Positions 43,851 through 62,402 of a stretch of DNA of 64,000 nucleotides are shown one piece after another. The notes under the pieces are model-generated. The model saw nothing but the letters and a program-made list of their open reading frames with translations, had not been told where the DNA came from and did no database searches. Made by a program: the position numbers and the translations under genes. Position 1 is the first letter of the stretch. Every line of letters starts with the position of its first letter. This stretch comes from Armatimonadota bacterium (GTDB taxonomy: Bacteria; Armatimonadota; HRBIN16): contig OY781964.1 in the NCBI GenBank assembly GCA_963677485.1, positions 1,856,001 to 1,920,000 on the forward strand, read 5' to 3'.

Positions 43851-44664
43851 TTACCAAATAGCACCTGGCAGAAACCCTCTCGGTCCCGTTGATGGCCAAT
43901 ATCGGCTGATGCGTGGTGGGTCGTGGCTCGACGGTGCCGAAGCCAGTTCGTTCCGCTGTTCGTTCCGAACCTACAATCTACCTACGAACCGGTACATCAG
44001 CATCGGCTTTCGTTGCGCCATGACGGAATAGCGGCTTGCGCATTGCCAAGACAGCCGCCTCTGCCCATTTGCGAGTATGCGATCAAGCCCTACACACCAC
44101 GGTTTTGCACAGGTGTCATCCGCATACCTGGCGGCTCCATGGGCAAGCCGGGTCTCAGTAAGGCCTTTACGCAAGGAAAATACATCGGCATCAACTGGAA
44201 TGTATCTGGTGCTGATACCGCCGAGAAATGCCTGGCTGCGAGCATCATTGCAGCTAATGTGAAACAGTGGGCGAATAAACGGCAATGCCTGGTGGTTTTG
44301 GACCACGATTCCTCTATGAAGAAGAGCCTTCCTGCTGCTTTATAGATGATCATCCCCTACTATCTTTCGAAGGGGTATCACTTCGGTACACTCTGTTCCG
44401 ATAGCTCCTGGCGAAAAGCCGTGGCTGCCGGACTGGTTCCACAAGAGCCCGCTTATACAATCAATAACAAAATCAAGCCGAAGTTATGAGTGGTTTTCCT
44501 GTCCCCAGACAACATGATGACCGCGCGTTGAATGCCTGGTTTCCGTGCAGCAGGCTTGCCCGTGGCCTGCAGATGGAGGTAAAATGCATTCGGTGATACC
44601 GCATTTTGCCTCAACCAACCGATGATTCCCCGCTCATGCGGGTTGATACAAGGAGATTCAGCTT

Positions 44665-45621
44665 ATGATCGTCCCCACCAGTGTGCTGTTTAAGCACGCG
44701 TATTTAAAATACGCACTTGGTGCATACAACATCAACAACCTCGAGCAGACCATGGGCCTGTTCAAGGGTAACATGGATTCCAAGGCACCCTTCATTATCC
44801 AGATTTCCAAGGGCGCACGCAGCTACACCGACAAGCGCATGCTTGAGGCGATGATCCGCGCAGCAGACGAAATCTGGCCAGACGCACTTTTTGCTGTTCA
44901 CCTTGACCATGGCGACGAAGAAGCATGTATGGACTGCATCGCCAGCGGCTTCTACAGCTCCGTGATGATCGACGGCAGCAGCCTTCCCCTGGAAGAGAAC
45001 ATCGCCGTCACCAAGCGTGTCGTCGAAGCAGCTCATGCTAAAGGCGTGAGCGTGGAAGCGGAACTCGGCACCCTGGGTGGCGTGGAAGAGCACGTTGCAG
45101 TGGACGAGAAAAATGCGCACCTCACCGACCCCAAAGAGGCAGAGTATTTCATCAAGAAGTCCGGCTGCGACAGCCTCGCCTGCGCGATTGGCACCAGCCA
45201 TGGCGCATTTAAGTTCAGCGGTGGTCAGGGTATCCATTTCGAGATCATTGACGCCATCCGCGAACTAGAGCCAGGTTTCCCGCTAGTTATGCACGGTTCC
45301 TCCAGCGTTCCGCAAGAAGAAGTTGAGTTGATCAACAAATACGGCGGCGCCATCAAGGGTGCCAAGGGTGTGGATGCTAACCAGTACCTGCCCGCAGCCA
45401 AGAAGGGCGTCACCAAAATCAACATCGACACCGACGGCCGCCTGGTGTGGTGCCGTGTTCACCGCCAGATGTTCGTAGAGAAGCCTGAAAACTTCGACCT
45501 GCGACCTCCCGGTATCATCTTCCAGAAGGAATATGCCAAGTTCATCGCCAGCCGCAATGTACTGCTTGGTTCCGCTGGTCAGTTGGATTCCGCCCGTGAG
45601 TTCTGCAAAGCCAATCTGTAG
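44665..45621 (+). CDS. fba: Fructose-bisphosphate aldolase class II
   Basis: HLDHG, SVMIDGS, EAELG, AIGTSHGAFK, VMHGSS, KINIDTD. Confidence 0.95.
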   Translation: MIVPTSVLFKHAYLKYALGAYNINNLEQTMGLFKGNMDSKAPFIIQISKGARSYTDKRMLEAMIRAADEIWPDALFAVHLDHGDEEACMDCIASGFYSSVMIDGSSLPLEENIAVTKRVVEAAHAKGVSVEAELGTLGGVEEHVAVDEKNAHLTDPKEAEYFIKKSGCDSLACAIGTSHGAFKFSGGQGIHFEIIDAIRELEPGFPLVMHGSSSVPQEEVELINKYGGAIKGAKGVDANQYLPAAKKGVTKINIDTDGRLVWCRVHRQMFVEKPENFDLRPPGIIFQKEYAKFIASRNVLLGSAGQLDSAREFCKANL

Positions 45622-45645
45622 TCTTTCGATTGGTACGGTTCGAAA

Positions 45646-45674
45646 GCCCCTCCTTGACCGGAGGGGCCTTTTTT
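45646..45674 (+). terminator. Intrinsic terminator
   Basis: GCCCCTCC-ttgacc-GGAGGGGC-cTTTTTT after fba. Confidence 0.8.
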
Positions 45675-45764
45675 CGTATGTATGAGTAGCCGTTTATGAG
45701 GGCAGGCTAATACCCACAAATGAATAACAGGTATATGGCCACGGTGCCGCGACATGAATGTCTC

Positions 45765-45881
45765 GGCTATTGACATGCCAAGCCTGCTGAAGCAGTCTGG
45801 GTGCAGCCACCATACAACAACGGCACCCTCCCAGGGCGAAGCCCTGCAGCCTGCTTCAGCAGGCTTGGTATGACAATAGCC
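45765..45881. repeat. 35-bp inverted repeat pair (REP doublet)
   Basis: 45765-45799 versus 45847-45881, three mismatches. The core GCCTGCTGAAGCAGGC is itself palindromic, and a related copy lies near 58218. Confidence 0.8.
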
Positions 45882-45935
45882 ATGTGCTTTAGCGCGTGGC
45901 GGTGCTTCAATGATATTTGTGTGTATGAGTAGCCG

Positions 45936-47735
45936 TTATTTGGGCATGGATGGGGTATGGCGTATGGAGCCAGTGAATAGCGGCGTCATCCCGGGCTTTG
46001 TTCGAGGATACACGCCGACCACGCTGTTCCCTTCCCACAGATAGCTCATCTTCAAATCCGGCACCGAAGGCCACAAGCCCGACACCGTATGCTCAAACCG
46101 TATGACCGGGTATGTGATGCTCAGCGTATCACCTGCTGAGGCGCTAAACTGCAGGTAATCACCTGACCACTTCGGACTGATCTGCTTGGAGTTCTGAAAG
46201 GCCCGTATAGCGTCTCGTTCAGCCCAGTGTGGGGGACGGATATAGAACCGGTCACTGACACGGGCAGTGACCGACAACCGCCCCTCATCCGGCAGGGATG
46301 AGCTCACAGTTCCCCACTCGGAATCGCGGCTGAAGCACATATTGACATAAACGCCAGATGGCCCTAACGGTGAGTTGGGGTTCTTGCAGATGGTGTTCAG
46401 CCAGGTGGTATACACTGCACGCATACCCTCCGGTGCGCAGCAACCTGCGATTTTGAACACATAACCGGCTCCGCCAAGTTGACTGTTTTCGAAGTCGTTC
46501 AGCCCGGCGTTGTAGAACCCGCCCTGGAATTTACGGACCTCTGCCAGTCCATTTTCAACCTTCTCTTTTCCCAGTGCTTTATTCATTTCTCGATATTTCG
46601 TCTCAAACTCTGGGGTTGCAATGAACTGCAGATTACCTATATAGTTCCGCATGTAGCGTTCGATATAGTCGTAGTATTCCGGGTGCCCATCAAGCGCGAT
46701 GTATGAGGCCGTGGACATCATATCGGATATCAGACAAACCTCGGTGCACGTCGATGCCCAGGCTGGTGCTGCAGGAAACCATCCCGTTCCGGTGCTGCGG
46801 CTGAGCATCCAGTCCCATGAACGCTTGGCAAACTCCACATACCGCCTCTCTTCAGTCACTATACCCAGATGGGCAATCCCCCAGACCGCATGCATGGTCA
46901 TGTGGCCATGACCGCTGCCAAAGTTTCCATCAGCCGCGAATGCGATGCTGCCAGGCTGCAATCCCTCTATGATCCCATCTGCATACGCCCTGGCGAAATC
47001 CAACGCTTCAGCGTCACCAGTTGACAGCCAATAGTTGATCAGTGCTTCGACTAAGGGTGCTGGTTGGGCCGTTGGTAATGCGACGGTGCCGTCTGGATGC
47101 ATCCCGCCCATCCCGCTTAGAATCCAGCACCGGCCTTTTGCGTCCCACACCGCCAGCTTCTTCAACATGAGCATGATCTTCCGAGCCAGTGCTTTCGACT
47201 TTGGATTACTCGTCCTGCGATAGTCTTCCGAAAGACTCGTCAGAATCTTGGTCGCACCCCATATATGGATGATGTAGTCGCTCTTTTTGTATACAGCGTC
47301 GACATTGCCCTCATAGAAACATCCTGGCGCACTCCACACGTAACCATTGTCATCGACATAGCTCAACATGCGCTTATGGAAAGCCTTCTCGACATCGCGC
47401 CCCATATCTGAGCCGGTGATGTCGCGCATGTAATACCACTCCCAATCCATACGGGCATCTGTGTCACAAGGCACAATCGGGTCGGTACCCTCTGGAGCTG
47501 GCGGGCACTGGTAGGTAAAACACTGGAAGACAGGATCATAGTTCAGGTGCTTACGGGGTGATTCCGTTAGGTAACGCAGTGACCATTGGGCCATGCGGTT
47601 CAAGTCGATATCTTCAGATCGTGCGAGAACAGAGGATTGCGAAGCTGCCTCGGACACTTGTTTTGCCAGCCGGATGTTTCTGACCGTTCCTGTCAGGCCC
47701 TTAATACTTGCCGCCGTCACAGATGCAGTGCTCAT
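45936..47735 (-). CDS. GH127/GH146-like (alpha/alpha)6 glycoside hydrolase
   Basis: GHGH, TEVC and GCCAPEG resemble the Glu/Cys Zn-site motifs of beta-L-arabinofuranosidases. C-terminal beta domain (IRPPHW). Confidence 0.55.
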   Translation of the reverse strand: MSTASVTAASIKGLTGTVRNIRLAKQVSEAASQSSVLARSEDIDLNRMAQWSLRYLTESPRKHLNYDPVFQCFTYQCPPAPEGTDPIVPCDTDARMDWEWYYMRDITGSDMGRDVEKAFHKRMLSYVDDNGYVWSAPGCFYEGNVDAVYKKSDYIIHIWGATKILTSLSEDYRRTSNPKSKALARKIMLMLKKLAVWDAKGRCWILSGMGGMHPDGTVALPTAQPAPLVEALINYWLSTGDAEALDFARAYADGIIEGLQPGSIAFAADGNFGSGHGHMTMHAVWGIAHLGIVTEERRYVEFAKRSWDWMLSRSTGTGWFPAAPAWASTCTEVCLISDMMSTASYIALDGHPEYYDYIERYMRNYIGNLQFIATPEFETKYREMNKALGKEKVENGLAEVRKFQGGFYNAGLNDFENSQLGGAGYVFKIAGCCAPEGMRAVYTTWLNTICKNPNSPLGPSGVYVNMCFSRDSEWGTVSSSLPDEGRLSVTARVSDRFYIRPPHWAERDAIRAFQNSKQISPKWSGDYLQFSASAGDTLSITYPVIRFEHTVSGLWPSVPDLKMSYLWEGNSVVGVYPRTKPGMTPLFTGSIRHTPSMPK

Positions 47736-48155
47736 TCATAATCTCCAAAACGCGACAACCAATCTGCCGTATATGTAGTTAGCCAACGAACCGCCGTCAA
47801 AAGATGACGCCCAGATCAGACCACGTTGATAGTATCATAACCCGCGGGTTTGCACAGGTCTATGTTTTTCGGTCATTGTGAGCATCATAGCTTCGGTACC
47901 GGTGGCATGTAGGTACACCCAGGGCGATTCGCCAATCGCCCCAAGTACGCTGAAGCGGACGGGGGAATACTCCCTGCGCCGGCCGGAGCGTAGCGACGCC
48001 GGCCGCTAATGATCAGCCACGCGGTGAGGAAACCCCGTAGGGACGCCAGTCCCGTGGGGTGACTGAACCCGTGGCCATTTGCCAATATCGTCAGTTACAC
48101 CCTGGGCTGCCGTGCCATCACGGGCGGTTGCTTGTTCCTGACACACATCATCCAT

Positions 48156-48828
48156 GGCTATCCGCCAGACCGGCGCGGTCTTGGGACTTCCGCCACCGCT
48201 AGCGTACCGCCAGACCGCCCCGGACAGTGGCAATTGGGTACCCATCCACGTCATCCTTGGTTCAGACAATCCGCGTTCATCTGTGTCCATTCGTGTCTAT
48301 CGGTGTAAATTCGTGGTTGAAAATGAATCCATAACTATTTCGTGCCAATCGCCCCCTGCTACGAAAAAAGACCGGCGCGGTCTTGAGCCTTCTGCATCCG
48401 CTAACCTACAGCCAGACCGCCCCGGACATAGCCAATTGGGCTGTGGTGTGCTCACGACAATCCGCGTTTATCTGTGTCCATTCGTGTCTATCGGCGTTTA
48501 TTCGTGGTTAAGAAATGAATCCAAACAATTTCGTGCCAATCGCCCCCTGCTACGAAAAAAGACCGGCGCGGTCTTGAGCCTTCTGCATCCGCTAGCGTAC
48601 CGCCAGACCGCCCCGGACAGTGGCATTTGGGCACCCATCCATGTCATCCGTGGTTCAGACAATCGGCGTTCATCTGTGTCCATTCGTGTTTATCGGTGTT
48701 AATTCGTGGTTAAGAATTGAATCCAAAACAATTTCGTGCCAATCGCTCCCTGCTTAGGAAAAAGACCGGCGCGGTCTCGAGCCTTCTGCAGCCATGAGCC
48801 TGCGCGCAGACCTCCCCGGACAGTGGCA
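48156..48828. repeat. Tandem array of ~200-bp composite units (family A + family B modules)
   Basis: AGACCGGCGCGGTCT starts at 48167, 48369, 48560 and 48763 (periods 202, 191, 203). The linkers are homologous. Confidence 0.88.
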
Positions 48829-49076
48829 ATGCGTGGCTGCAACGTAAGCGAACAGTTGGTGGTGCCGATTCTATGTCTTCTATTGACCAAATGCAGGCTA
48901 GCAGTTATCATATTTGAGGCATATAGGCATTTGGGAACAAAATACATGGTAATTTCCGTCTATATTTCACAGGACGTAAACATTGGTCGTCAGGTTAAGG
49001 TATAACTAACATATCATCACCCCCCGCCCAAAGGGGCCTGTCAACGCACACTCCGTGCGGGAAAGGGGCAAACACA

Positions 49077-49562
49077 ATGAGCACGACACACCTAAGAGGC
49101 TTTCTTCTCACTGAAGAGGGCCATGAAACACTAAAAAAAGAGCTGGAGCATCTGGTCAGCGTCGGTCGAAAAGAGATTGCCGACCGCATCCGTACCGCCA
49201 AAGAGTTCGGGGAGATCACAGATAATCCCGAGTATGATGATGCCAAAAACCAGCAAGCCTACATAGAGGGCCGGATCGAGGAGCTTCATAGCTTCCTGGA
49301 CAATGCGTATACTATAAACAGTGACAGCATCACCACCGATACTGTGGGATTCGGCTCGGTCGTTACAGTTTACGACGCCGACAACGACGATGAGTGGACT
49401 TTTCGACTGGTCAGCGCGCCTGAGGCTGGCGATGACGATGATCTGCTATCGATTGACTCTCCTCTAGGCAAGGCACTGGTAGGGCACGCCCCAGGCGAAT
49501 CGCTGGAGGTAAAAGCCCCCGCAGGTACGGTGAGAATTAAGATATTGGGTATTTCAAAATAG
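49077..49562 (+). CDS. greA: Transcription elongation factor GreA
   Basis: AKEFGEITDNPEYDDAK, SIDSPLGKALVG. Confidence 0.93.
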   Translation: MSTTHLRGFLLTEEGHETLKKELEHLVSVGRKEIADRIRTAKEFGEITDNPEYDDAKNQQAYIEGRIEELHSFLDNAYTINSDSITTDTVGFGSVVTVYDADNDDEWTFRLVSAPEAGDDDDLLSIDSPLGKALVGHAPGESLEVKAPAGTVRIKILGISK

Positions 49563-51068
49563 ATGGAACAGACAACCGTACAGGACCTGAACGATCAGAT
49601 GATGCGCCGCCGCGAAAAGCTGGCGGCGCTAGTCGACATGGGGCTCAACCCATACGCAATAGAGGCCTTCGAGCGCACACACACCTGCCAGAAGGTTCAT
49701 GATGAATTTGAGGCACTGACCGAGCAGCAAGTCGCGGTGTGCGGTCGTGTCGTGGCATTACGCCATATGGGCAAAGCGGCCTTCCTGCATGTGGAGGACT
49801 GGAGCGGAAAAATCCAGGCCTACCTGCGTAAGGACGACATCGGCGAAGACAAATGGCCGGTCGTGAAGCTGCTGGACCTCGGTGACTATATCGGTGTGAC
49901 CGGTAAGCCGTTCATCACCAAAACCGGTGAGCAGTCCATCCACGCCGAAAGTGTGTTGGTGCTCAGCAAATGCCTGCGCCCTATTCCTTACGGCAAAGAG
50001 AAGGAAGGGCAGAACTGGAACACGCTCCAGGACGTGGAGATACGCTATCGCCAGCGCTATCTTGACCTGCTGACCAACGATGAGGGCCGCAACCGGCTGG
50101 TACAGCGCTGCCACATCATATCGGAGGTTCGCCGCTGGCTGGATGACCGCGGCTTCCTGGAGGTCGAAACCCCCATGCTGCAGGAAGTGGCAGGCGGGGC
50201 CGCCGCCCGGCCTTTCATGACGCACCACAACGCGCTGGATTTCGACTTCAAGCTGCGCATCAGCATCGAGCTCTACCTGAAGCGACTGATCGTGGGCAAC
50301 ATCGAAAAGGTGTATGAAATCGGCAAGGTGTTCCGCAACGAGGGCATGGACCGCCGTCATAACCCGGAGTTCACTCTGCTGGAGCTGTATCAAGCCTACG
50401 TGAACCTGGAAGAGATGATGGAGATCACCGAACAACTTTTCTACACATGCTGTATGAAGCTGCACGGTGTGCCGTACATCGAAGTGGCCGGCGAGAAGGT
50501 AGACTTCACCCCGCCGTGGCCCCGCCGCAGCATGATGTCGCTGATTGAGGAGTATGCCGGGGTCAAGCCGGAAGAGCTTGCGACATTTGATACCGCTTGT
50601 GCCGCGATGAAGCGATGCGGCCTGCCTACCGCTGACGAGAACCAGGTGGGCGGAATCATGGAGAAGCTGCTGGAGCGGTTTGTTCAGCCCAGAATGATTC
50701 AGCCGATCTTCATCACCGATCATCCGCTGGAGACGTCCCCTCTGGCTAAGAAGAAGCAGGATGATCCTACGCTCACACGCCGTTTTGAGGCCTATATGCT
50801 GGGCCAAGAGGTAGCTAACGCCTTTAGCGAGTTGAACGACCCTGACGACCAACGTGAGCGGTTTATGGAGCAATTGCGCATGAGGGCTGCCGGTGATGAT
50901 GAGGCCCATCCGCTTGATGAAGACTTCCTGCAGTGCCTGGAATACGGCATGCCGCCTACGGGTGGTTTGGGGATTGGCATGGACCGCATGGCCATCATCC
51001 TGACAGCCGCCGATAGCATCCAGGATGTGATGTTCTTCCCTGCCATGAAGCCGAAGTCACAAGGCTAG
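49563..51068 (+). CDS. lysS: Lysine--tRNA ligase (class II)
   Basis: RYRQRYLDL, EVETPML, GGAAARPF, FRNEG, HNPEFT, YGMPPTGGLGIGMDR. Confidence 0.97.
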   Translation: MEQTTVQDLNDQMMRRREKLAALVDMGLNPYAIEAFERTHTCQKVHDEFEALTEQQVAVCGRVVALRHMGKAAFLHVEDWSGKIQAYLRKDDIGEDKWPVVKLLDLGDYIGVTGKPFITKTGEQSIHAESVLVLSKCLRPIPYGKEKEGQNWNTLQDVEIRYRQRYLDLLTNDEGRNRLVQRCHIISEVRRWLDDRGFLEVETPMLQEVAGGAAARPFMTHHNALDFDFKLRISIELYLKRLIVGNIEKVYEIGKVFRNEGMDRRHNPEFTLLELYQAYVNLEEMMEITEQLFYTCCMKLHGVPYIEVAGEKVDFTPPWPRRSMMSLIEEYAGVKPEELATFDTACAAMKRCGLPTADENQVGGIMEKLLERFVQPRMIQPIFITDHPLETSPLAKKKQDDPTLTRRFEAYMLGQEVANAFSELNDPDDQRERFMEQLRMRAAGDDEAHPLDEDFLQCLEYGMPPTGGLGIGMDRMAIILTAADSIQDVMFFPAMKPKSQG

Positions 51069-51090
51069 AATCCCGCAGGGTAGCCGCCTT

Positions 51091-51129
51091 AAGTCCGTCG
51101 ACCAGTTATTAGCTGGCCGGCGGACTTTT
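51091..51129 (+). terminator. Hairpin terminator between convergent lysS and radical SAM genes
   Basis: AAGTCCGTCGACCAGT...GCTGGCCGGCGGACTT followed by TT. Confidence 0.6.
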
Positions 51130-51225
51130 ACATTTATAGGACCGGTAGGATGAGTAAGACGAGTAGGACAGTGGAATACCCAGCGGTTCTCTCCTGCTCT
51201 CCTACCCTCCGATACTCCTCTTCTC

Positions 51226-52317
51226 CTACCCTCCTACCTTCTCCAGCAAAACCAGCCCTGGCTCACCACCCTCCACACTACCGCTCAGAATATAGCTCAC
51301 AGCCGGGCAGCCGGCATCACACGCCACCTGCTCGCTGCAGCCATTACAGCCCTCCGGCTTGAACTCACGCAGCACATGCTGCATCCACAACGGGTGCTGG
51401 GGGAAATCCTGGCACTGCGTGTAGTGACCCAGCCGCACCGGCGAGTGGTTGCACACCCGCACGTAACCCGAGGGGTCGACCGCCACGAAGTTGTGAACCG
51501 CGGAACACTGACTGGCCACATACAGATGCTTCAACTCCAAACCGCGAATCGCACAAGCGGGCAGCTCCGTACCCATCGAGCCATACCGACCGGCATCAAC
51601 CAGAGCCGATTCGGCGGTGAGCAGCGCCTCGCGCAGCTCGTCATTACTTAACGACAGCATCTCCCGATAGCCCAACCCCCTGCCGCCTGGCATGAAGCGG
51701 TTGAGCAGCAACTGGTCGGCCCCGGCCAGCAGACCCTCGGCGATGTTCTGGTAGAGTTCTTGCAGGTTGAGTTTGGTCACGGTGACCGCCACCGTGACCA
51801 GCAAGCCAGCGGCTTTGGCCACTCGGATGGCGTTCAACGCGCTCTGCACATCGCCACCGCCGGTGAGCTGTTCAAAGCTGCGCCATCCCGGCAGCGAGAC
51901 GGTCAACTGCAAGCCGCACTCCGCCGCGACAGCCGCGAACGCCTCATCAACCAGCCGACCATTGGTGTTCATGTGCAGTGTCGGAGGGGCTTGAGTGGCC
52001 ACAAGCTCGCCATCCACCGTCCGGAAGTGCGTGCCGGTGGCAGTGGCCGAGTGGCGCAGTATCTCCAGGATGTCCGGCCGCAACAGCGGTTCGCCGCCCG
52101 TGAAGGAGAGATGGCTGACACCCATTTCCAACAGATTGTCGATCATCTGCTTGACCTGCTGGGTGTCCTGCTCAGGCAGTCGCTCGAAGCTGCCATCGGG
52201 GGCATCCCAAGGGCAGGAGCAGAACAGGCAGCTATGGTTGCATCGGTAGGTGAGTTCCAGTGCAACGGTAGGAGGAAGCGGCGAGGGCATCAGCACCCCG
52301 CTACTTTTTTGGTTCAT
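51226..52317 (-). CDS. Radical SAM/SPASM domain protein
   Basis: CNHSCLFC (CX3CX2C), TGGEPL, TNG; SPASM C...DPSG.V..C and CNGC-x5-C-x3-C. Confidence 0.92.
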   Translation of the reverse strand: MNQKSSGVLMPSPLPPTVALELTYRCNHSCLFCSCPWDAPDGSFERLPEQDTQQVKQMIDNLLEMGVSHLSFTGGEPLLRPDILEILRHSATATGTHFRTVDGELVATQAPPTLHMNTNGRLVDEAFAAVAAECGLQLTVSLPGWRSFEQLTGGGDVQSALNAIRVAKAAGLLVTVAVTVTKLNLQELYQNIAEGLLAGADQLLLNRFMPGGRGLGYREMLSLSNDELREALLTAESALVDAGRYGSMGTELPACAIRGLELKHLYVASQCSAVHNFVAVDPSGYVRVCNHSPVRLGHYTQCQDFPQHPLWMQHVLREFKPEGCNGCSEQVACDAGCPAVSYILSGSVEGGEPGLVLLEKVGG

Positions 52318-52861
52318 GATCCATACCTAACAGTTGCCGCAGTTTCGGGGCTACTTCCGACAGCGGGGTAAGGCCCGCATATCGCTTGCCCTGGAACAGG
52401 CAGAGCAACTGGTAGATCGCTTCCGGTTGCTCCAGGTCCGCCCGATGGGCATTCCCCTTGCGGTCGGTGGTGACCAGCACGGCATAGTAGCCTGTCTTGC
52501 CCTTGGAGCAGCGTGAGCAGAGCGTTGTTTCGTCCAGCGAGATACGTATCTGCGCGCGGACCGCTGCCAGCCGGGCGTTGAGCGGTTTGACTTCACGACG
52601 GGCCGCTGAGAGTTCCAGAATGTAGTCTTTATGAAAATCGGTGAAGACTGTTCGTGCGCCGCATTTCGGGCAGAGGTAGTCCACACGATCGGGCGGCATG
52701 GCCACATCGTAGCACATGGCGGACTGCACCACCTCGTAGCGTTCGGCCTTCTCAAGCTGGTCAAGGCGCGCTTTGATCTGCTGTGCGGTTTGCAGCGGGA
52801 CGCGGTCTACTTTTTTCGCCGCGTCACTGTCGCTGATACGCTTTACTGGCTCATTTCTCAT
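52301..52861 (-). CDS. QSAMCY / double-CxxC protein, paralogue B (putative radical SAM substrate)
   Basis: VVQSAMCY, YLCPKCG, LCSRC. Overlaps the radical SAM start by 17 bp. Confidence 0.8.
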   Translation of the reverse strand: MRNEPVKRISDSDAAKKVDRVPLQTAQQIKARLDQLEKAERYEVVQSAMCYDVAMPPDRVDYLCPKCGARTVFTDFHKDYILELSAARREVKPLNARLAAVRAQIRISLDETTLCSRCSKGKTGYYAVLVTTDRKGNAHRADLEQPEAIYQLLCLFQGKRYAGLTPLSEVAPKLRQLLGMDHEPKK

Positions 52862-52982
52862 AGCTTACCCTTTCGAGATTTTTTACCATCCGATGAGATT
52901 TTCGATTCTTTTTACTTCGTCACGCAACTGCACGTAACCATATTTCTGCCTGCGACACCATTTTACATATAGCAGACTTTCA

Positions 52983-53531
52983 TCAATGCTCCAAACCCAT
53001 CAATTTAGTTAGTCGTTCCGAAATATCGCCCAGGCTGACTAGCTTTGAATACCTCTTACCCTTAAGCAGACATTGGATGGCTTGCAAATCGGTGGGATAC
53101 TCGATATCAGCTCGATGCACGTTCTTACGCTTATCCGTCGTCACCAAAGATGCACGGTTGCCGGGCTTTTCTTTGGCGCAGCGAGCGCACAACGGAGATT
53201 CATCAAGCGTGAAGTGTAGTTCAGACTTCAACTTATCAGACAGCCTGTTCAGCTCCGGAATTGTGCTTCGAGCCGACTCGATACCACGAATGTAACTCAC
53301 CATACTCTCCGTAAACACCGTGCGCGCACCGCACTTGGGACAGAGGTAGTCCACACGAGTGGCTGGAGCGGCAGGTTTGTAGCACATGGCGGACTGCACG
53401 ACCACATATTGCTCACCGCGTTTAAGTTGGGCCAGCCGTTGTTTGATTTCACTGCGAGTGCGCATCGGAACACGATCGACGATCTTCTCAGCCTGGATTT
53501 CGGGAATCTGTTTCACTGGCTCAGTTCTCAT
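52983..53531 (-). CDS. QSAMCY / double-CxxC protein, paralogue A (putative radical SAM substrate)
   Basis: VVQSAMCY, YLCPKCG, LCARC. Colinear with paralogue B. Confidence 0.8.
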   Translation of the reverse strand: MRTEPVKQIPEIQAEKIVDRVPMRTRSEIKQRLAQLKRGEQYVVVQSAMCYKPAAPATRVDYLCPKCGARTVFTESMVSYIRGIESARSTIPELNRLSDKLKSELHFTLDESPLCARCAKEKPGNRASLVTTDKRKNVHRADIEYPTDLQAIQCLLKGKRYSKLVSLGDISERLTKLMGLEH

Positions 53532-53726
53532 AGCTTACCCTTTCGAGAGTGTATGCTTTTATGACGGTATCCTGCGCTGTTGGTTACATTTCGGGTGATC
53601 TTGTTCAGGGCAGGCACGGGGGCCTGCCCCTACGGTTGTGACCATACCCATATGACATGTCAGACGAGGTGGACGAGTAGGACTGGTGTGTTTCTTCCGT
53701 CTCCGGCTCTCCTATTCTCCCATCTC

Positions 53727-54800
53727 CTAACTCCTCCAAAAGAACGCGTAACGCTCCATCGCGTCCATCAGCGCGTTGGCGTTCTCCAGCGGTACGCCGT
53801 GATACAGGCCGTAGACCATCATCAGCCCGCCTTGAGGGCTGCCCAACTCGGACACTTCTTCGCGGATCATCTCGTCAATCTGCGCTGGCGTGCCAAACCG
53901 CGTGGTCTTCTGACGGTCGATATCCAGCTCGATGCAGACCTTCCCCTTGACGTTCTGCTTGATCCAGTCGATGCCGTTGACCAGGTCCTGCAGGTTCATG
54001 ACATCCACTCCGCCATCTACGATGTCGGCATACAGGCTGCGGATATCGCCATCGGAGTGCATGTGGACCAGGCAACCGGCCTCTTTGGCCGGCTTCATCA
54101 ATCGCTGGTAACTCGGCTTGATATACTTTCGGAAGTGCGCAGGCGAGAGCATCGGGCCGTTTTGCATGCCCAGGTCTTCCGCGTAGCCCATCGTGTCGGG
54201 AGCCAAACGAACGTAACGCTTTACCAGACCAAGGTTGAACTGCTCTACCATCTCGATCAGCACGTCCAGCCTCGGATCCTCATCGGCCATATCATACATG
54301 AGGTTCTGGTAACCCCTGATATCCACCAACTGCAGGAAGGTGTGTCCATGCCGCAGGCCAGCCGCACACAGCGAGCCGTTGGCTTTCGTTTGCTCAAAGG
54401 ACTTTGCGGTCTGCTCCCAGTCGATAGGCCCTATCCCCATGCATGTTTCGGGATCGGGCGCGATGTAACCTTGCAGGCTGTCCCAGTTCTCCAGCGGGTG
54501 TTTCGTGACCACGCCCACGATACCCGCCTCAGAGGTTTCCCAGAAGCATCCCCAGTCGTCCGTGTAGGTGATGTTCCCGCTTTGCTTGGGAGACGGCGTA
54601 AATCCTTCTGGCGGCAACCAGACCGAGGGGTCGGGATACAGTAACGGGTGAGACAGGATCAACTCCTTCAAGGCGTCTACGGGGTAGTTGTTCCAGCAAG
54701 CCCCATTGATGTGGAAGGCCATCGGAATGAAGTCTGGCTTCTCAAAACGCACCGCGCGCAGATAGTTCTGTCGCCTTTCCGATTCTGATATCTTTGTCAT
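53727..54800 (-). CDS. Uroporphyrinogen decarboxylase / MtaA-CmuA-like family protein
   Basis: DDWG..W, HPL, AEDLG.Q...LSP, HSDG, GTP. Confidence 0.85.
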   Translation of the reverse strand: MTKISESERRQNYLRAVRFEKPDFIPMAFHINGACWNNYPVDALKELILSHPLLYPDPSVWLPPEGFTPSPKQSGNITYTDDWGCFWETSEAGIVGVVTKHPLENWDSLQGYIAPDPETCMGIGPIDWEQTAKSFEQTKANGSLCAAGLRHGHTFLQLVDIRGYQNLMYDMADEDPRLDVLIEMVEQFNLGLVKRYVRLAPDTMGYAEDLGMQNGPMLSPAHFRKYIKPSYQRLMKPAKEAGCLVHMHSDGDIRSLYADIVDGGVDVMNLQDLVNGIDWIKQNVKGKVCIELDIDRQKTTRFGTPAQIDEMIREEVSELGSPQGGLMMVYGLYHGVPLENANALMDAMERYAFFWRS

Positions 54801-54899
54801 AGGGATGCCTTTCGTCGTGGTTTTGTCAATTTAAGAGGTCGGACCCACCCACATGTCATTTCATATTCCTCATCCTGGCTATAGACTTCTGTCCCCATG

Positions 54900-56954
54900 C
54901 TATTTGACAAACCGCACGCTGAGCTGCCGAGAGGCCGGCACGCGAACCACCACAACCCCCTTCAGTTCATCGGATACCACGAGCTTGAGTACCTTGCCGG
55001 TGCGAGCGTCCACCACTCGCGAGAAATCGGCAGGCTGGGCGAACTCTACCTGCTTCACGCCGATCGGGCCGGTGAACACCACATCGATGCGGCGTGAGCC
55101 GTTCGCCTCGGGGCTGATGCTGACACTCAGGCGGCTGCCCTCCGAATTCGGCAGCTTGATCTTGGATATCTCAAGCTTATCCGCCTTCACCGCCTCCGGA
55201 ATGAGCGGAAAGACACGCAGACGGTTGGCGATCTGGTCGTAATCTACACCGAATAGTTTCTCCACCACGCACTGGATCCACTGCGAGGCCGACCAGCCGT
55301 AACGCTGCACGCCCTCACCGCTCCCGGTGGTGGGGTGCAGGAACTCCGTCCAGCGCCGGTTGAACTGCTTGATGGTCATCCAGTTCAGTTCCGCTGAAAG
55401 GTCGTAACGCCCCACGTCTCTCAGACCGTCGATCACGGGCAGGTTGCGCATCGTCCAGATATCGCCCCACCAGGCACGGCCATCGTAAGGTCCGGTCGCC
55501 TCCACATAGCGAGGTTCAGTCTTGGCCAGGCTGGTGATAGCCACTCCGCCCCAGTTGAACAGCTTGGGATCAAGTAGCTGCGGAATCAGCTTACCGACCT
55601 GCGCTTCTGAGGCCGTATTCAAACGCATCGGGTCAAAGGTTGTGCAGATGAGTTGCGGGTCGTGCTCACGTGTCTGCACGTTCACATTGAAGTAGTCACC
55701 GCGTGTGTTATCCCAGCTATATTTGTTTAGTGCCGATTGAAGTTCACGCTTTTGCTTCTCGTAGTAGTCTGCTTGCTCGGTATGTCCTAAGGCGCGTGCC
55801 AGTTTGGACACGTTGTCGCATCCGATAATGACCGCCATATTGGTATCCACCGGCGCCACCGTTTGGGAGGTGGGGATATCTGCACCGAGACTCTCCTCGA
55901 AGATGGCGGTGATGAGCTTCGTCTTGGCATCGCGCTTCACGGGGGAGAGCCACCAGTCCAGATAGCCCTTCAGACAAGCGTAGACGTCTTCGCGGGTTTT
56001 GATGTCGCCGCTGCGCCGCGCCACATCGTAAGCGGCCTCGAACAGCCGAGGGGTGCTGCTCTGCTCGCCCATGGTGCCCCTGACCGAGGCTGAGCCCCAC
56101 AGGTCGATGCGGCCATCGGGGTTCAACGCCTGCACGGCGGCGAATCCCCGGCACATCTGCTCAGCCAGTTGCGGGTTGGCCCACTTCGTGCCGATGATGT
56201 TCAATCCGCTGTCCAGTTGCCACCAGTTCTCGCCGTAAGCTCCGCCAGGCCCCATCACAGGCGTGGGGAAGCCCTGCACCGGCACGCTGGTGATCAAACA
56301 CTCATCCAGCACCTTGAAGGCGTCTGCAAAGTCGGCTTGAGTCACGCCTGCTATCTGCACTACCGGCACCACCGCCGGGCTGCACACATCCGGGCGGGGA
56401 AGTTTGGGCCGTGGGTCGCCCTTGGCAAACCGGATGCTGCGGATCCACATATCGCCAGCCCGCGCCAGACAAATCGGCCTAATGCGGATCTGGTCAATGG
56501 GCTTGCCCCAAGCTCCGTCCACATGAACCACCACCTCTTGCCACTCCTTGCAGTAGGACTTCATGGTGAAGCGGATCACGCCGGCATCTTGCGTGGGGTT
56601 GTCTGGATGGCGCCAGAACAGGAAGCCGTCGGTCTCTGGCGACTGGTTGAGCATGGTGATGATCACCTTGTTATAGCTCTCGTATGGGATATTCAAACCG
56701 TGCGGCGAGTCGATCTCACCCATCGGCGGAGCGTAGGTCTGGTTGGGGATCGCCGCATAGTCGTAATTCGCAGGCAGATTCGCCCTCAGGCGCATCGATC
56801 CGCCCATGATGCTGGCACTCAGGTTCGGTGCGATCGTCCAGCCCAGTGAGTCTCCGCTGCGGCTAAACTGCCACATCGGTGCATCGGCCTGTGCGGCCAT
56901 CGAAATCATGCATGGAGCGGCTATCAGTGCCAAGATAAGTATTATCGTCTTCAT
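54900..56954 (-). CDS. Secreted (alpha/alpha)6 glycoside hydrolase (GH63/MGH1-like)
   Basis: Signal peptide, W.LDS, VDTN, WWGDIW, YGWSA. Confidence 0.65.
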   Translation of the reverse strand: MKTIILILALIAAPCMISMAAQADAPMWQFSRSGDSLGWTIAPNLSASIMGGSMRLRANLPANYDYAAIPNQTYAPPMGEIDSPHGLNIPYESYNKVIITMLNQSPETDGFLFWRHPDNPTQDAGVIRFTMKSYCKEWQEVVVHVDGAWGKPIDQIRIRPICLARAGDMWIRSIRFAKGDPRPKLPRPDVCSPAVVPVVQIAGVTQADFADAFKVLDECLITSVPVQGFPTPVMGPGGAYGENWWQLDSGLNIIGTKWANPQLAEQMCRGFAAVQALNPDGRIDLWGSASVRGTMGEQSSTPRLFEAAYDVARRSGDIKTREDVYACLKGYLDWWLSPVKRDAKTKLITAIFEESLGADIPTSQTVAPVDTNMAVIIGCDNVSKLARALGHTEQADYYEKQKRELQSALNKYSWDNTRGDYFNVNVQTREHDPQLICTTFDPMRLNTASEAQVGKLIPQLLDPKLFNWGGVAITSLAKTEPRYVEATGPYDGRAWWGDIWTMRNLPVIDGLRDVGRYDLSAELNWMTIKQFNRRWTEFLHPTTGSGEGVQRYGWSASQWIQCVVEKLFGVDYDQIANRLRVFPLIPEAVKADKLEISKIKLPNSEGSRLSVSISPEANGSRRIDVVFTGPIGVKQVEFAQPADFSRVVDARTGKVLKLVVSDELKGVVVVRVPASRQLSVRFVK

Positions 56955-57121
56955 AGAACCTCCCGAATAACCCGGCTATACGCCTAGTGAGTTAGTCAGG
57001 GGTAACATTCGGCATGTTGTGCTTGCATCCCTGCATGGGTGTCTCTGCAAGCCGCACTTTATCCGTCAGGTTCCGATATGCTACACTACAACGGAAACGT
57101 CAATTATCAAGGTGAAGGCTT

Positions 57122-58138
57122 GTGATTAAGAAGTGGAACCTGTCTGACAAGTACGCCGACTGGCTGATGATGGCATCAATGGGAAGCAAATTCTTGGTGT
57201 TTATGGGCACCGCGTTCATGATCTCTGCCCTGGTAGACCCAAAATACTGCGAAGTATGCATGATCATCGCCCTTTGTGCTTATGTAATCCAGATACCAAT
57301 AATGAACACCCGTAGTTTTGAACCATTTACGTTGACATATTCCCACACCTACCCGGCGATATTCAAGGTTGCTCACTCTGACACCGCACCACACTATGTG
57401 TGCAGTTCTGACGATCCATTACTGGATACTGATATACTTTCCGAAGGCCGTACCAGTGCGTTCGGTGGGTTTTTATTTATAGTTGGTGTCATGTGTCATG
57501 CGGAACATAACTACGTCTGTTCGATACCACTCACATTTATCGGACTGACCATGGCCCTTCAAACATCGACATTTGTGCGACGCTGGATGCGTGGGCGTCG
57601 ATGGGGCGTGAAGGGCTGGCATATCGATGGGCTATATGCGTTGTTCGAGTTGCCTGGGTTGGTATTTAACCGCATCTCCGAAAAAGAGAAACTGGTTTTT
57701 GTCACCTGCTGGCCAGATAACACACAGGACGCATTTAGTGCCGCGGTTTGTGATCGTCGGCCATCGATGTACCTGGTGGGATGGCGTTATGTGTTGCCCG
57801 TCAGCTACGATTCGGAGAAGAACGCCGAGGTTCGTGAGCAGATGGTACAACAGCTATTTGGGCGTAGTTTGCCGCTAGTTGAGTTACCCCAGGAAGTCAT
57901 GCCCCAACCACGACCTACCCGGACGATCGTGACCGCAATGGTTTTATCGGCCCTAGGGTATTACTTCTTGCTTGGCTTCTTATTCCGGCTAGGCCGCCCC
58001 AATATCGAGTTGTTGCGCATGTCCCTGCCACTCCAATCGGTCATCTGCTCGTGGTTGACCATGCTGGCATATGCACATTGCCTTCAGGTTTCAGGCCGCA
58101 GACGCCTTAAGGCGGCAGCTTCAAGCTGGTGGACTTAG
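57122..58138 (+). CDS. Hypothetical membrane protein
   Basis: 338-aa ORF with several hydrophobic segments and no recognisable motif. Confidence 0.6.
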   Translation: MIKKWNLSDKYADWLMMASMGSKFLVFMGTAFMISALVDPKYCEVCMIIALCAYVIQIPIMNTRSFEPFTLTYSHTYPAIFKVAHSDTAPHYVCSSDDPLLDTDILSEGRTSAFGGFLFIVGVMCHAEHNYVCSIPLTFIGLTMALQTSTFVRRWMRGRRWGVKGWHIDGLYALFELPGLVFNRISEKEKLVFVTCWPDNTQDAFSAAVCDRRPSMYLVGWRYVLPVSYDSEKNAEVREQMVQQLFGRSLPLVELPQEVMPQPRPTRTIVTAMVLSALGYYFLLGFLFRLGRPNIELLRMSLPLQSVICSWLTMLAYAHCLQVSGRRRLKAAASSWWT

Positions 58139-58363
58139 GCTGGCGAAGCAGGGCAGGCAACCTAAGTTTCTTTTTACATATAGGTAACTACTCAGCCATA
58201 GTTGACGGGTTCCATCAACCTGCTGAAGCAGGCTTCGTCACCCGTCCCTCATCAGATGGCTGTCCGCTGAAGCGGACGCATTCCGGATTCCCTCGGCAGC
58301 GTGGCTGGTGGCTTTCGATCCACACCACCGGCACTTGGCGACGGGTTCCGTGGCCCGTCCGCG

Positions 58364-58822
58364 AGACCGGCGCGGTCTTAAGCCTTCTGCTCCCGCTAGC
58401 CATCCGCCAGACGGCCCCAGACTTAGGCAATTGGGGCCGGCGGATTTTAGGTAACAACCTTAAATACCTCCGACACGCTTAAAAGTTAGTGTTGCCACCG
58501 TCCGGGGCGGTTTTCTCCTAACCGCGCCGGTCTTGTTTCCGCCACGAGGCCTTGAGGCTATCCGCCAGACCGGCGCGGTCTTAAGCCTTCTGCTCCCGCT
58601 AGCCATCCACCAGACCGCCCCGGACTTAGGCAATTGTGGCAGGAGGATTTTAGGTAATAACCCAAAGTACCGCCGACACGCTGAACAGTTAGTGTTGCCA
58701 CTGTCCGGGGCGGTTTTCTCTAACCGCGCCGGTCTTGTTTCCGCCACGAGGCCTCGAGGCTATCCGCCAGACCGGCGCGGACTTTGGCAATTGAGGGAGG
58801 GCGATTCGCGAATCGCCCCTAC
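58364..58822. repeat. Tandem ~203-bp family A units plus a GTAG-type REP
   Basis: AGACCGGCGCGG starts at 58364, 58567 and 58769. Each unit holds one forward and one inverted module. GGGCGATTCGCGAATCGCCCCTAC lies at ~58799. Confidence 0.88.
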
Positions 58823-58923
58823 AGATCCAACCGCCCTGGGCATCGCGAACCTGAACACCTCAGAGCCGTCCCCATATAATCTGCGTAATCTGTGTCATCT
58901 GTGGATGATTCTATATACCCCAG

Positions 58924-61900
58924 CTAATACCGAGCCTCAACTGTCACCCTGCCGCTCAAGCCGTGCAGTCGAACGGTATCGCAATCGAACTCCAGCCAGT
59001 TCTGGCCATTCACCAACATGGCCTTGATCGGCATGCCCTTTGGGTGGCGGAGACGAAGCTTCACGGCAGCGGGTTGAGACCGTTTTGGCATATCGAGCTC
59101 AGCCTTGATGGTGTTTTGCTCCACATCCGAGACGATCTCGTAGGAGACCACGCCAAAGTGGGTCGGCGCGTTCTGGACGCTGATCCGCTTCCCCTGTTCC
59201 AGCCAGACCCGCGGCGTGGCCCTCGCCAGCCACAGGTTCTGCCCCTCCTCCATCACCAGCAGGTTTCGGAAGCGCTCCAAGAAGGCGGCTTCTTCGAAAA
59301 TCTTATCTGGCGGGCCATGCACGGCGTGCTCGTTGAAGATATAACCATCAAACGGCAGCAGGTCGATGGCATAGCAGTTGAAGAAGGAGCGCAGGAAAAC
59401 CGGCACATCATCGCCCGCCAGATGCATGTTCGCGGTGCGCTCCAGACCGCCCTGATACTGCCAGCCAGCCATGAACCAGTCGCCCTTGGCACGCTGGGCC
59501 ACGTAGGCGTTCTCCAACAACAGCCTGTCCTCCAGCACGTCCAGGTAGCCCTGCACCCGCACGTCATCCGGGGGCAGCAGACCCGCGAGACTGATCAGCG
59601 CGGCCGCCGATTGCACGGTCTCCCAATACATGGGCCCCACGTGGCTGCCGGAACCATCGCGCAGCCATCCCCACGCCCCAGTGCTCAGACCGCGCACATA
59701 GCAGCTAAACGGGATCACCGAATGGTATGTGCCGTCACGCACAGGCACCACCGGCGAAAGCGCGATCGAACGCTCCACCGCCGCGAGCAGGTCTTTGCGG
59801 TAAGACTTCGCCTCAGCCGCGAGCTTGGCACCAGCTTCGGGATCGACCACGCTGAGGGTGGCTGCCAGTCGTGCGATCGAAGACCAGTAGTAGGCCTCGC
59901 ACTCGTAGAACTGCATCCACAACCCGCCGCTGTCGGGGGTCACCTGCAGAGCGGGCTGTAACCCCTTACACCAGAGACGCTCACCGCCAGGAAGCATGTT
60001 TCTGTTTACCTGCCGCTGGCGCAGCATCCATTCGGCATTGGCTTGGATGCGCGGAGCGGCGGCCTTCAGCCACTGCTTGTCGCCGGTCATCCAATAGTGC
60101 TCCGTCAAGGCCAAACCGATCGAGCCCGGCCCGAAGGCGTGGATACCATCCATCTGACCACCCGCACCATCGGGACCCACCGCGTTGGTGAGGCAGCCAT
60201 GGCCATCGGTGAAGAGACCATTGGGGCGGTTGGGCAGAGCACCCGCGTTGTGGCCCACCGAGTTGGTGTCCATCGGCAGCGAGATCCACTGGTCCAGACC
60301 ATCGGCCGCCGCGGAGTGGGAACCGAACAGGTCCAGAGCCATCAGCACCATGTACGTCTCGGCGCCGAGAATGCCGTAAGGATAGTCGTCGAACCACAGT
60401 CGACCGTTCGCCAGGTTCTTCTGCGCGTGCCGCAACAGATGCCAGTTACCGAGGTTCCATTGGGCGGTCATGCGTTCTGAGGGCACGGATATCTGCATCG
60501 CCGGTTTGAACTCGGCAGGAGCCGTGGGGTGCGGTGGCAGATTCTCGCCACACATCGCGGTGACGGCGCCTTCCCAGCTCTGCTCCTCATGATCGCGTGT
60601 TTGCTGGCGGATGGTGCTCAGCTTCTTAGCCTTGAGTTGCTTCAGAAACGCCCTGGCACTAGTGGCTTTCGACGCGAGTGAGATCGGAGGATGGGACGGG
60701 ATCCCGGGCGAGACAACCGAGTTTTGCATCGCAAACTGCCAAACATCAGCATTACCCTGAGTGTCGCTGTGCGGATTACCGGCATGAAGCGATCCCAGCA
60801 CGTCCTGGCTGAGGTTCCATGTGCGTCCGCGGCCACCCACTTCCGTGATCACCAGACTGATCAGGGTGGTGTCACACACATGCGAGCCTTTCCGGCCGAC
60901 CGCCAGCGAGAGCACGTCGCCAGCTTCCAGCTTCACAGAATCCAGTGCTTTGGTCTGCTCGGAATCGGCCGGGATGCTCTGTGAGCCGGTTCCGTTGGTG
61001 GCTCCATGGGCCAGATCAAAGTGTTTTGCTTTGGTGTCGTGGGTGATCCACCACTCGATGCCGTCAGAACCGGTTTGAGCATGGGCCACACTGGCCGTGA
61101 CCTTCATGCTGCCCTTGATCGGGCTGTGCCAGCCCACCGCAACCTCGGCACTCTGACCAGGGTGCATGGCCAGGCTGTTGGCGGGAAGTTCGATACCTTG
61201 AACAGAAACCAGATGGTTGGTCGGGTTGCCTCCGAACCAGGGGGTTTCGTCGCTCCCCCATCCCACTAGCTCCGCGTTGCCCGCGATGGAGTTCATCTTG
61301 CTGGAGAGCGGAACCATCTTATTGCGATGGTCTTGCGCGGATTGCTTCTTGACCGGCGGCAGCTTTGAGCTGCGCCGTATGAAGAATCCGTATTCCGGCG
61401 CATAGATCGGGCCGTTCTCCAAGTCCGCCGCCAGGAAGGAGAAGTTGCCGGACTTAGTCCAGAGTGTGACGATGGTTCGGGCGACATCCTCGCGCTGACT
61501 AGTGAAGGGAATCTGCTCACGCCATTTGGAGGTGCCCATATACAGCAGGCTGGCTTTGATGCCCCGCCGGTCCGCAGCTTTCCCCGTTGATGACCATGAG
61601 GTGCCATCGGCTGATGTGCCCGCGTCCCCGTTCAAAGGCTGGAGGCCAGTGAGGATGCCGTCGTAACACTCGTAACGCCCGCTGTAGTCCTTCTGAGCAG
61701 TCGACTTCTCGAAAGCCCATTCGATCTCAATGTCCATATTCTTCCAGGTATCGGCGACCAGTACCCTCACCGTGGGCACATCATATTCAGAGGCGGTCTT
61801 GGGACCGGCCACGCTCAGCACGATGCCGCAGGTGTTGTGCTTCAAGTCGTAGGTATAACTCCTGCCGTCGCTGGATTTCACCGGTTTTGCGGCCTGTTCG

Positions 61901-62307: not shown

Positions 62308-62402
62308 GGGATATCTGACCTCCATCGCTTTGGTTCCCTTCTATGATCGGGGTTTCGACGATTCCTCAAGGGATGTCACCACACGTCCGTTAGTTCGCCA
62401 CT

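Follow-up and report, generated by a model that had tools for sequence, protein, structure and literature searches.

The window analysed here is a 64,000-nucleotide (nt) stretch of the genome of an Armatimonadota bacterium (assembly GCA_963677485.1, contig OY781964.1, positions 1,856,001 to 1,920,000 of the forward strand). On its minus strand, two paralogous small genes, A and B, encode putative zinc-ribbon-type proteins with an S-A-M-C-Y loop, and a third gene encodes a radical S-adenosylmethionine (SAM) enzyme with a SPASM-type C-terminal half. The small-protein pair and the enzyme are a two-part module conserved across several bacterial phyla. We judge it somewhat better than an even chance that the small protein is a folded substrate and the SPASM enzyme a maturase acting at the Cys-Tyr loop. 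This proposal builds on the paired genes, on the pattern of conservation and on a predicted complex, all described below; catalysis on the small protein, its site, its chemistry and the topology are what we infer from them. The features of the module are as follows.

52983..53531, minus strand: small gene A, 182 amino acids (aa), putative zinc-ribbon-type protein with the SAMCY loop (open reading frame, ORF)
52301..52861, minus strand: small gene B, 186 aa, paralogue of A (ORF)
51226..52317, minus strand: radical SAM gene with SPASM-type C-terminal half, 363 aa (ORF and PF04055 match)
53379..53393, minus strand: codons 47-51 of A, S-A-M-C-Y, the GAMCY loop of the family (90-sequence alignment)
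52709..52723, minus strand: codons 47-51 of B, S-A-M-C-Y (A/B alignment)
53331..53342, minus strand: first knuckle of A, C64-P-K-C67 (family alignment)
53178..53189, minus strand: second knuckle of A, C115-A-R-C118, after the L109-D110-E111 motif (family alignment)
52661..52672, minus strand: first knuckle of B, CPKC (A/B alignment)
52508..52519, minus strand: second knuckle of B, CSRC (A/B alignment)
52213..52242, minus strand: radical SAM cluster motif CNHSCLFCSC, residues 26-35 (sequence and clade alignments)
51307..51555, minus strand: SPASM region, residues 255-337 (motif read from sequence, and clade alignments)
53532..53548, minus strand: 17-nt leader before the ATG of A (identical to the B leader)
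52862..52878, minus strand: 17-nt leader before the ATG of B (identical to the A leader)

Conservation of the gene pair and of the Cys-Tyr loop

The proteins encoded by A and B align without gaps and are identical at 90/182 positions (49%; BLASTP, E 9e-66). A preliminary description of this DNA had reported two co-oriented paralogues sharing VVQSAMCY, RVDYLCPKCGARTVF and LDE..LCxRC, and all of these are present, the shared motifs being in full VVQSAMCY, RVDYLCPKCGARTVF(T) and LDE(S/T)xLCxRC. Nucleotide identity is 56% (307/546) overall and 38% (69/182) at third positions. The run of 21 identical nucleotides that had also been pointed out is GTGCAGTCCGCCATGTGCTAC, which covers codons 45-51 (VQSAMCY; 53379-53399 in A); when columns were shuffled 10,000 times, 8 shuffles gave an identical run at least this long. 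A second run of 18 nt spans codons 58-64. The identity of the two 17-nt leaders indicates that the ribosome-binding region was duplicated along with the gene, and an in-frame TAA two codons 5' of the ATG of A rules out a longer reading frame. As first described, the second small gene overlaps the start of the radical SAM gene, by its last 17 nt (52301-52317). Searches of the same genome with the family profile identified A (6.2e-102) and B (3.8e-97) as the sole copies of the small family.

The pairing was tested both ways, from the small protein and from the enzyme alone. The preliminary description had staked its case on co-localisation of small-protein homologues with the radical SAM gene, and the pairing held. 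Among 61 relatives, the small family was found in the sister species (G001) only, where three tandem copies occupy the same place beside lysS. Within the phylum of the window it occurs in 6 of 401 genomes, always in tandem or fused arrays. The enzyme clade (at least 294 bits) was found in the same six genomes plus one other, G245; all other matches scored at most 152.5 bits. Enzyme and small gene are adjacent in five of the six genomes, and in the sixth both genes lie at contig ends. Genome loci from other lineages were fetched with a single protein, P0040. All three loci obtained in this way (metagenome-assembled genomes titled Fibrobacteres, Verrucomicrobiota and 'bacterium') contain one to three small copies followed by a radical SAM gene of ~360 aa, the junction being a 4-nt overlap or a 16-nt gap and the enzymes being 39-50% identical to that of the window.

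The converse set consisted of 80 metagenomic loci found via enzyme motifs alone, 73 of them informative and seven with too little flank. A same-strand family match ends within 300 nt upstream of the enzyme in 65 of the 80 loci, lies directly downstream on the same strand in five, and is merely nearby in two; opposite-strand family matches were absent from all 80. Direct same-strand adjacency is therefore seen in 70 of the 73 informative loci, and the other three hold a small-family gene nearby. Locus L081 (253-876, 1181-1486) has no profile match; by reading, a short divergent gene (...ISAACY-x11-CPEC...CSEC) was recognized ~870 nt upstream of the enzyme, and the ORF inserted between the two is one that we take to be ParE-like. 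The number of family matches per locus (72 loci) is one in 45, two in 20 and three in 4, with single loci carrying four, five and six. When the neighbour ORFs of 86 loci were clustered, the enzyme formed a cluster of 73 loci and the small family one of 59, and no third gene family was recurrent (the next cluster comprised at most nine loci); hence no protease, exporter or protein with a recognition element for peptides that are made on the ribosome and modified after translation (RiPP recognition element, RRE) is conserved at these loci.

Some loci have unusual arrangements. L039 (2499-10164) contains six family domains with one enzyme gene: two lie ~1.3 kb upstream of it, three follow it directly downstream, and the last is another 3.5 kb away. 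In L024 (5334-6458) and L026 (4508-6040) the module has a further, distinct radical SAM gene next to it, that of L026 being of the B12-binding type.

That the adjacency arose by chance, or is a decaying remnant in which the small ORFs are not functional partners of the enzyme, is hardly credible. Two damaged enzymes could be cited in its favor. The orphan enzyme of G245 (L029 7375-8436, 418 bits) is missing its N-terminus and CX3CX2C motif and is not accompanied by a small gene, and its truncation fits decay after loss of the partner; the two ORFs directly before it (6753-7040 and 7040-7372) presumably resemble an antitoxin/toxin pair. The enzyme of the sister species (L006 6524-7635) is split into two ORFs through a 1-nt deletion that does not lie in a long homopolymer, with the three upstream small genes open; either the gene is truly a pseudogene or the assembly is wrong at this place. 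Against chance stand the 70 adjacent loci, start/stop codon overlap in several phyla, and the size of the small family and its confident monomer model, to which we now turn.

A word-index homologue search with A returned seven relatives, which underestimates the family size, as an exhaustive profile search found 622 representative clusters at E <= 0.001, 286 of them at E <= 1e-10. Family members are typically 200-220 aa long, and some chains contain two or three fused modules. L33, A48, C50, Y51, C64, C115 and C118 are invariant in the 90-sequence alignment, where M49, Y62, P65, C67, G68, T71, R88, L109-D110-E111 and L177-L178-G179 are kept in at least 90% of the sequences. The family signature is xGAMCY-x13-CPxCG ... 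LDExxxCxxC, with CPxCG near-invariant. Among enzyme-adjacent domains covering the motif (n = 99), Cys50 is found in 99 and Tyr51 in 96, whereas all four knuckle cysteines are present in 76; thus the Cys-Tyr dyad, rather than the putative metal site, is most constrained. A glycyl-radical-type motif at Gly47 was considered and rejected, since the window copies have Ser47.

Neither A nor B has a match above curated cut-offs in Pfam, NCBIfam, PHROGs or PADLOC (nothing better than E 0.013 in PHROGs). The same is true of the relatives searched, 30 in Pfam and 24 in NCBIfam, except for fused DksA/TraR fingers in two. Zinc-ribbon Pfam models match the small proteins below their cut-offs, and a search of PDB sequence profiles aligned the knuckles alone at E ~0.01 (best E-value 0.009). 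The two fusion proteins, P0056 and P0127 (2 of 150 matches listed), carry a C-terminal DksA/TraR C4 zinc finger (PF01258, 43 bits versus a cut-off of 24.9), a hint that some lineages may connect the family with the regulation of RNA polymerase. Both have GACCY in place of GAMCY and no membrane helix.

The AlphaFold2 monomer of A, built with the family alignment, is confident (predicted local distance difference test score, pLDDT, 94.4; predicted TM-score, pTM, 0.88). Searches with this model gave no Foldseek match in the PDB at E <= 0.001, a best Z of 4.4 (background level) in a wide VIA-align search, and no usable feature match in the ESM Atlas, where structure TM was at most 0.40. The missing solved look-alikes are compatible with a new fold but are no proof of one.

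A hydrophobic 19-mer is found at the N-terminus of 105 of the 139 listed motif-bearing relatives; A, B and their nearest relatives are without such a helix. No Lys or Arg precedes the 19-mer in 101 of the 105, and the net charge after it is positive. Judged by this pattern, the helix of most relatives is probably an N-out/C-in membrane anchor with the domain in the cytoplasm. The idea that most relatives are lipoproteins or secreted was rejected: a loosely defined lipobox-like string occurs in just 37 of the 105, and Lys or Arg before the helix in 4.

The enzyme and its predicted complex with the small protein

The enzyme is a member of the radical SAM superfamily (PF04055, 75 bits versus a cut-off of 29.5). 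Its cluster motif is C26-x3-C30-x2-C33-x-C35, of which all 57 clade members compared share C26, C30 and C33. The extension of this motif to CX3CX2CxC, to which the preliminary description had drawn attention, is present in the window enzyme but is not a fixed property of the clade, because the additional Cys35, although present in no fewer than 90% of the 57 members, is Val in one orthologue. The SPASM pattern, read from the sequence, is C271-x12-G284-x4-C289 and C324-x2-C327-x5-C333-x3-C337. Seven cysteines are conserved in this region (C255, C271, C289, C324, C327, C333 and C337), and C271, C289, C327, C333 and C337 are invariant in the clade. This pattern, together with MftC, PqqE and GeoRSP alignments reaching residue 353-356, assigns the enzyme to the SPASM proteins, and in one source its relatives go under the name 'radical SAM protein with 4Fe4S-binding SPASM domain'; the lack of a match to the Pfam SPASM model at E <= 0.1 counts against the assignment.

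The full-length alignments to NCBIfam models are all sub-threshold: 80.7 versus a cut-off of 265 for MftC (TIGR03962), 59.3 versus 381 for PqqE and 63.2 versus 400 for GeoRSP. By PDB profile, the nearest solved enzymes are SkfB (65.3 bits) and PqqE (60.4), then CteB, MoaA and anSME (29.7). The start of the cluster motif at residue 26 leaves no space for an N-terminal RRE domain. Hundreds of enzyme clusters are annotated merely as 'radical SAM protein'; relatives so labelled come from organisms classed as Planctomycetota, Thermoguttaceae, Sumerlaeota, Myxococcota and Fermentibacteria. Likeness of the enzyme to pVip in PADLOC (46 bits, residues 21-101) was dismissed as generic radical SAM similarity.

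The complex of the two proteins was predicted with SAM and three clusters included, in three runs and with three controls. The interaction prediction score from aligned errors (ipSAE) was 0.87 (runs 0.88, 0.87 and 0.87), and that of the best of the three controls was 0.00. This mark is reached in 116 of 157 solved complexes versus 2 of 215 mismatched pairs, in a calibration that covers neither our own alignments nor the ligands; by the tool's own terms, such a model supports binding without showing it. As the small protein has no solved relative, there was none for the prediction to copy from. At least 60% of contacts are shared between runs, and the partner pLDDT is at least 73. On the small-protein side the interface consists of residues 23-39 (the conserved helix), 50-55 and 58-76. 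On the enzyme side it consists of residues 5-16, of residues 69, 71, 113, 115, 139, 175 and 204, and of stretches next to SPASM cysteines (270-276, 289-290 and 330-332). The contacts of lowest error join enzyme residues 8-16 to small-protein residues 68-72. Enzyme residues 69, 71, 113, 115, 139, 175 and 204 probably lie on inner barrel strands, judging by where they stand with respect to the GGE, NTNG and SLPG motifs, and the residue lists suggest entry of the loop into the active site.

We propose that the three genes encode a two-component maturation module, in which the enzyme would dock on the folded small protein. The N-terminal tail of the enzyme (residues 5-16) would pair with the small-protein beta-strand 69-72, the conserved small-protein helix (residues 26-38) would pack against the enzyme, and the loop with the invariant Cys50-Tyr51 would reach into contact with it. 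The enzyme would then carry out a two-electron oxidative modification at Cys50/Tyr51. SPASM enzymes typically carry out two-electron oxidations, and by this analogy our guess is a thioether-type crosslink from Cys50 as the likeliest product, with oxidation of Cys50 as the alternative. The crosslink might form while the Cys50 thiolate is bound to an auxiliary cluster in which just three protein ligands leave one iron vacant. The end product would be a matured protein and no peptide would be released; in most relatives it would be membrane-tethered via the N-terminal hydrophobic helix, whereas both window copies would be soluble. We prefer an enzyme with a folded substrate because one to six copies are found per enzyme, diverged copies keep the loop, and no RRE, protease or exporter accompanies them, and also because, with seven SPASM cysteines, one cluster iron would stay free, which has likewise been proposed for CrpC (PMC13692751).

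Several results weigh against this proposal. The interface is large (194-211 contacts), which would equally fit a stable 1:1 subunit, as would the single small copy in 45 of the 72 match-bearing loci. No residue of 50-55 is included in the 25 lowest-error contact pairs listed, conservation of the interface is barely above that of the rest (0.53 versus 0.45, one-sided p = 0.03), and the conserved L109-D110-E111 and C-terminal RLxxLLG lie outside the confident interface. CPxCG is also a rubredoxin-type knuckle and suits an electron donor. Finally, if the deletion in the sister species is real, small proteins persist there without an enzyme.

Many of the same observations bear on a different explanation, the chief rival though less likely in our view, in which the enzyme would need the small protein as a subunit and the true substrate would be encoded elsewhere. 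Such a subunit could donate electrons from a metal centre in the manner of rubredoxin or Dph3, could act as a scaffold whose Cys50 completes the active site or an auxiliary cluster, or, in most relatives, could anchor the enzyme close to a membrane-borne substrate, for example a lipid. Dph3/Kti11 donates electrons to a radical-SAM-like enzyme, and the CPxCG and CxxC knuckles are conserved here. A subunit would also account for the size and confidence of the interface, its contact with enzyme residues 330-332 within the CX2CX5C stretch, the prevalence of one copy per enzyme, the hydrophobic 19-mer with so few preceding Lys or Arg, the lack of conserved processing or export genes, and the open small genes beside the split enzyme of the sister species. 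Yet arrays of two to six copies and chains of two to three fused modules per enzyme would be odd for a 1:1 partner, the knuckle cysteines are less well kept than Cys50 and Tyr51, and no other conserved neighbour points to a different substrate. The anchor variant is further weakened by the window copies and their closest relatives, which have no membrane helix, so that anchoring is no core function. The preliminary description had placed the functional site at the MCY motif of a folded protein, as opposed to a short RiPP precursor. Loop conservation above that of the knuckles, the confident monomer, and a predicted interface that includes residues 50-55 as well as the helix before them all fit this reading; a subunit role is the lesser possibility. 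The chemistry put forward in that description, a Cys-Tyr crosslink or a non-YG splice, is a guess.

Less probable still is a role of the pair in regulation, sensing or conflict, in which the small protein would gate or report the state of the enzyme, for example through Cys50 on a cluster iron, and signal onward. The DksA/TraR fusions would suit such a role, as would the sporadic distribution in the phylum, the conserved surface motifs outside the predicted interface, and the variable, island-like neighbours of the module (a PIN protein, a PD-(D/E)XK nuclease, toxin-antitoxin-like pairs). On the other side, the fusions are just two of the 150 matches listed, the small proteins match no defence family, the enzyme-pVip match is weak and generic, and no conserved output partner is tied to the module.

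Surroundings of the module in the window

Two metatranscriptome libraries, each from a different study, contain short contigs of a close relative in which the enzyme and B are partly represented, and two of these contigs (records 4 and 10) span the B/enzyme junction. They are a weak hint at expression, as presence in such a library is no proof of transcription. A promoter/terminator scan gave no signal beyond shuffle expectation, and no tRNA or Rfam family was found in 44000-64000.

GGAG-rich imperfect hairpins are located on both sides of the three-gene module (51130-51250 and 53641-53723), the first of which folds at -45.8 kcal/mol (z -2.9). They were considered as ends of a mobile unit, and this was rejected because the ~35-nt core of the first (GTCCTACTCGTC...) is found at no fewer than 50 places genome-wide, so that the element is a general intergenic repeat. 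The same-strand genes upstream are URO-D/MtaA-like (53727-54800; 46.8 bits) and a GH63/MGH1-like glycosidase (54900-56954); neither is kept beside the module, and a purH-like gene is there in the sister species. At 47885-48702, two minus-strand ORFs have translations with nearly the same start (MDTDER.LSEPRMTWMG.Q.PLSGAVWRYASG), and one plus-strand ORF is internally repetitive; this suggests that the intergenic stretch before greA/lysS contains a direct repeat some few hundred bases long.

Relation to known systems and significance

In the maturation of quinohemoprotein amine dehydrogenase, the SPASM enzyme QhpD introduces thioether crosslinks at Cys residues of QhpC, a small subunit that stays a protein. 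Loci of the module contain no dehydrogenase subunit genes or other conserved neighbours, the small protein has one conserved Cys site, unlike QhpC with its several Cys-Asp/Glu pairs, and no QhpD model is among the best 25 NCBIfam rows for the window enzyme. QhpD/QhpC is also mentioned in PMC13692751. The window enzyme shares with anSME (PDB 4K36-4K39), whose target is a protein Cys, a minimal architecture of ~370 aa with a radical SAM core and SPASM and no RRE. It is not an anSME, however: the likeness is remote at 29.7 bits, the C/S-x-P-x-R motif is absent from A and B, and the partner is a dedicated adjacent protein without known fold.

By sequence, sactisynthases and other SPASM peptide maturases (SkfB, CteB, PqqE and MftC) are closest to the window enzyme. 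As with SPASM peptide maturases, the putative substrate gene is directly upstream, often in several copies. Unlike them, the module has no RRE/PqqD partner and no conserved protease or exporter; all scores are far below the family cut-offs, that for MftC included, and the partner is a folded protein of ~185-215 aa in place of a leader-core peptide. Nor does it correspond to a classical RiPP system, as the partner in the window is a confidently folded 182-aa protein, an RRE is lacking, and no third family recurs in the 86 loci.

The CrpC/CrpA system of Methanococcus voltae (TIGR04463; PMC13692751) has a SPASM enzyme that modifies a whole neighbouring protein, and its gene cluster includes paralogues that resemble the substrate. 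CrpC has seven cysteines in its SPASM domain, the free iron of AuxI is proposed to bind a substrate cysteine, and protein-protein docking extends past a short leader; CrpC has an RRE, and CrpA is cysteine-rich, with 10 repeats of C-x-x-Q/D and a low-confidence model. The window enzyme likewise has seven SPASM cysteines for two clusters, yet it is without an RRE, and it falls outside the CrpC family, TIGR04463 not being among its best 25 NCBIfam rows (weakest 31.8 bits). Its small partner differs from CrpA in having one invariant A-M-C-Y loop, a confident fold and six cysteines in 182 aa, with no C-x-x-Q/D repeats.

No description of the motif (GAMCY/AMCY) or of the feature combination was found in literature full text; supplementary tables of radical SAM compendia (for example PMC10288494) might list the clade. 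A literature match for AMCY with radical SAM proved to be an irrelevant string match to the word AviCamCys. The earlier statement that the module matches no nameable system is thus upheld for the curated families and papers searched, and has to be qualified for the kind of system. The kind is precedented by QhpD/QhpC, anSME and CrpC/CrpA of 2026; the clade, the partner family and the single candidate Cys-Tyr site are new, and the fold probably is too.

A more specific proposal, to which we give somewhat less than an even chance, is that the module represents a new class in which an RRE-less SPASM enzyme docks through its N-terminal tail on a zinc-ribbon protein of novel fold and converts Cys-Tyr into a protein-derived crosslink or cofactor. 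The usually membrane-tethered, cytoplasmic product would have a catalytic or redox role of its own, and the module would have spread horizontally (Planctomycetota, Verrucomicrobiota, Fibrobacteres, Myxococcota, Sumerlaeota, Fermentibacteria).

Radical SAM/SPASM enzymes have mostly been studied as producers of small modified peptides. Whole folded proteins modified by SPASM enzymes are, to our knowledge, few: QhpC, sulfatases and, since 2026, CrpA. The module described here is compact, with two gene families, is widespread, and has a candidate site that is sharply defined as an invariant Cys-Tyr. If the modification is real, a fold without a solved relative would bear novel protein chemistry or a novel cofactor derived from protein; if there is none, the small protein would be a new obligate radical SAM subunit.

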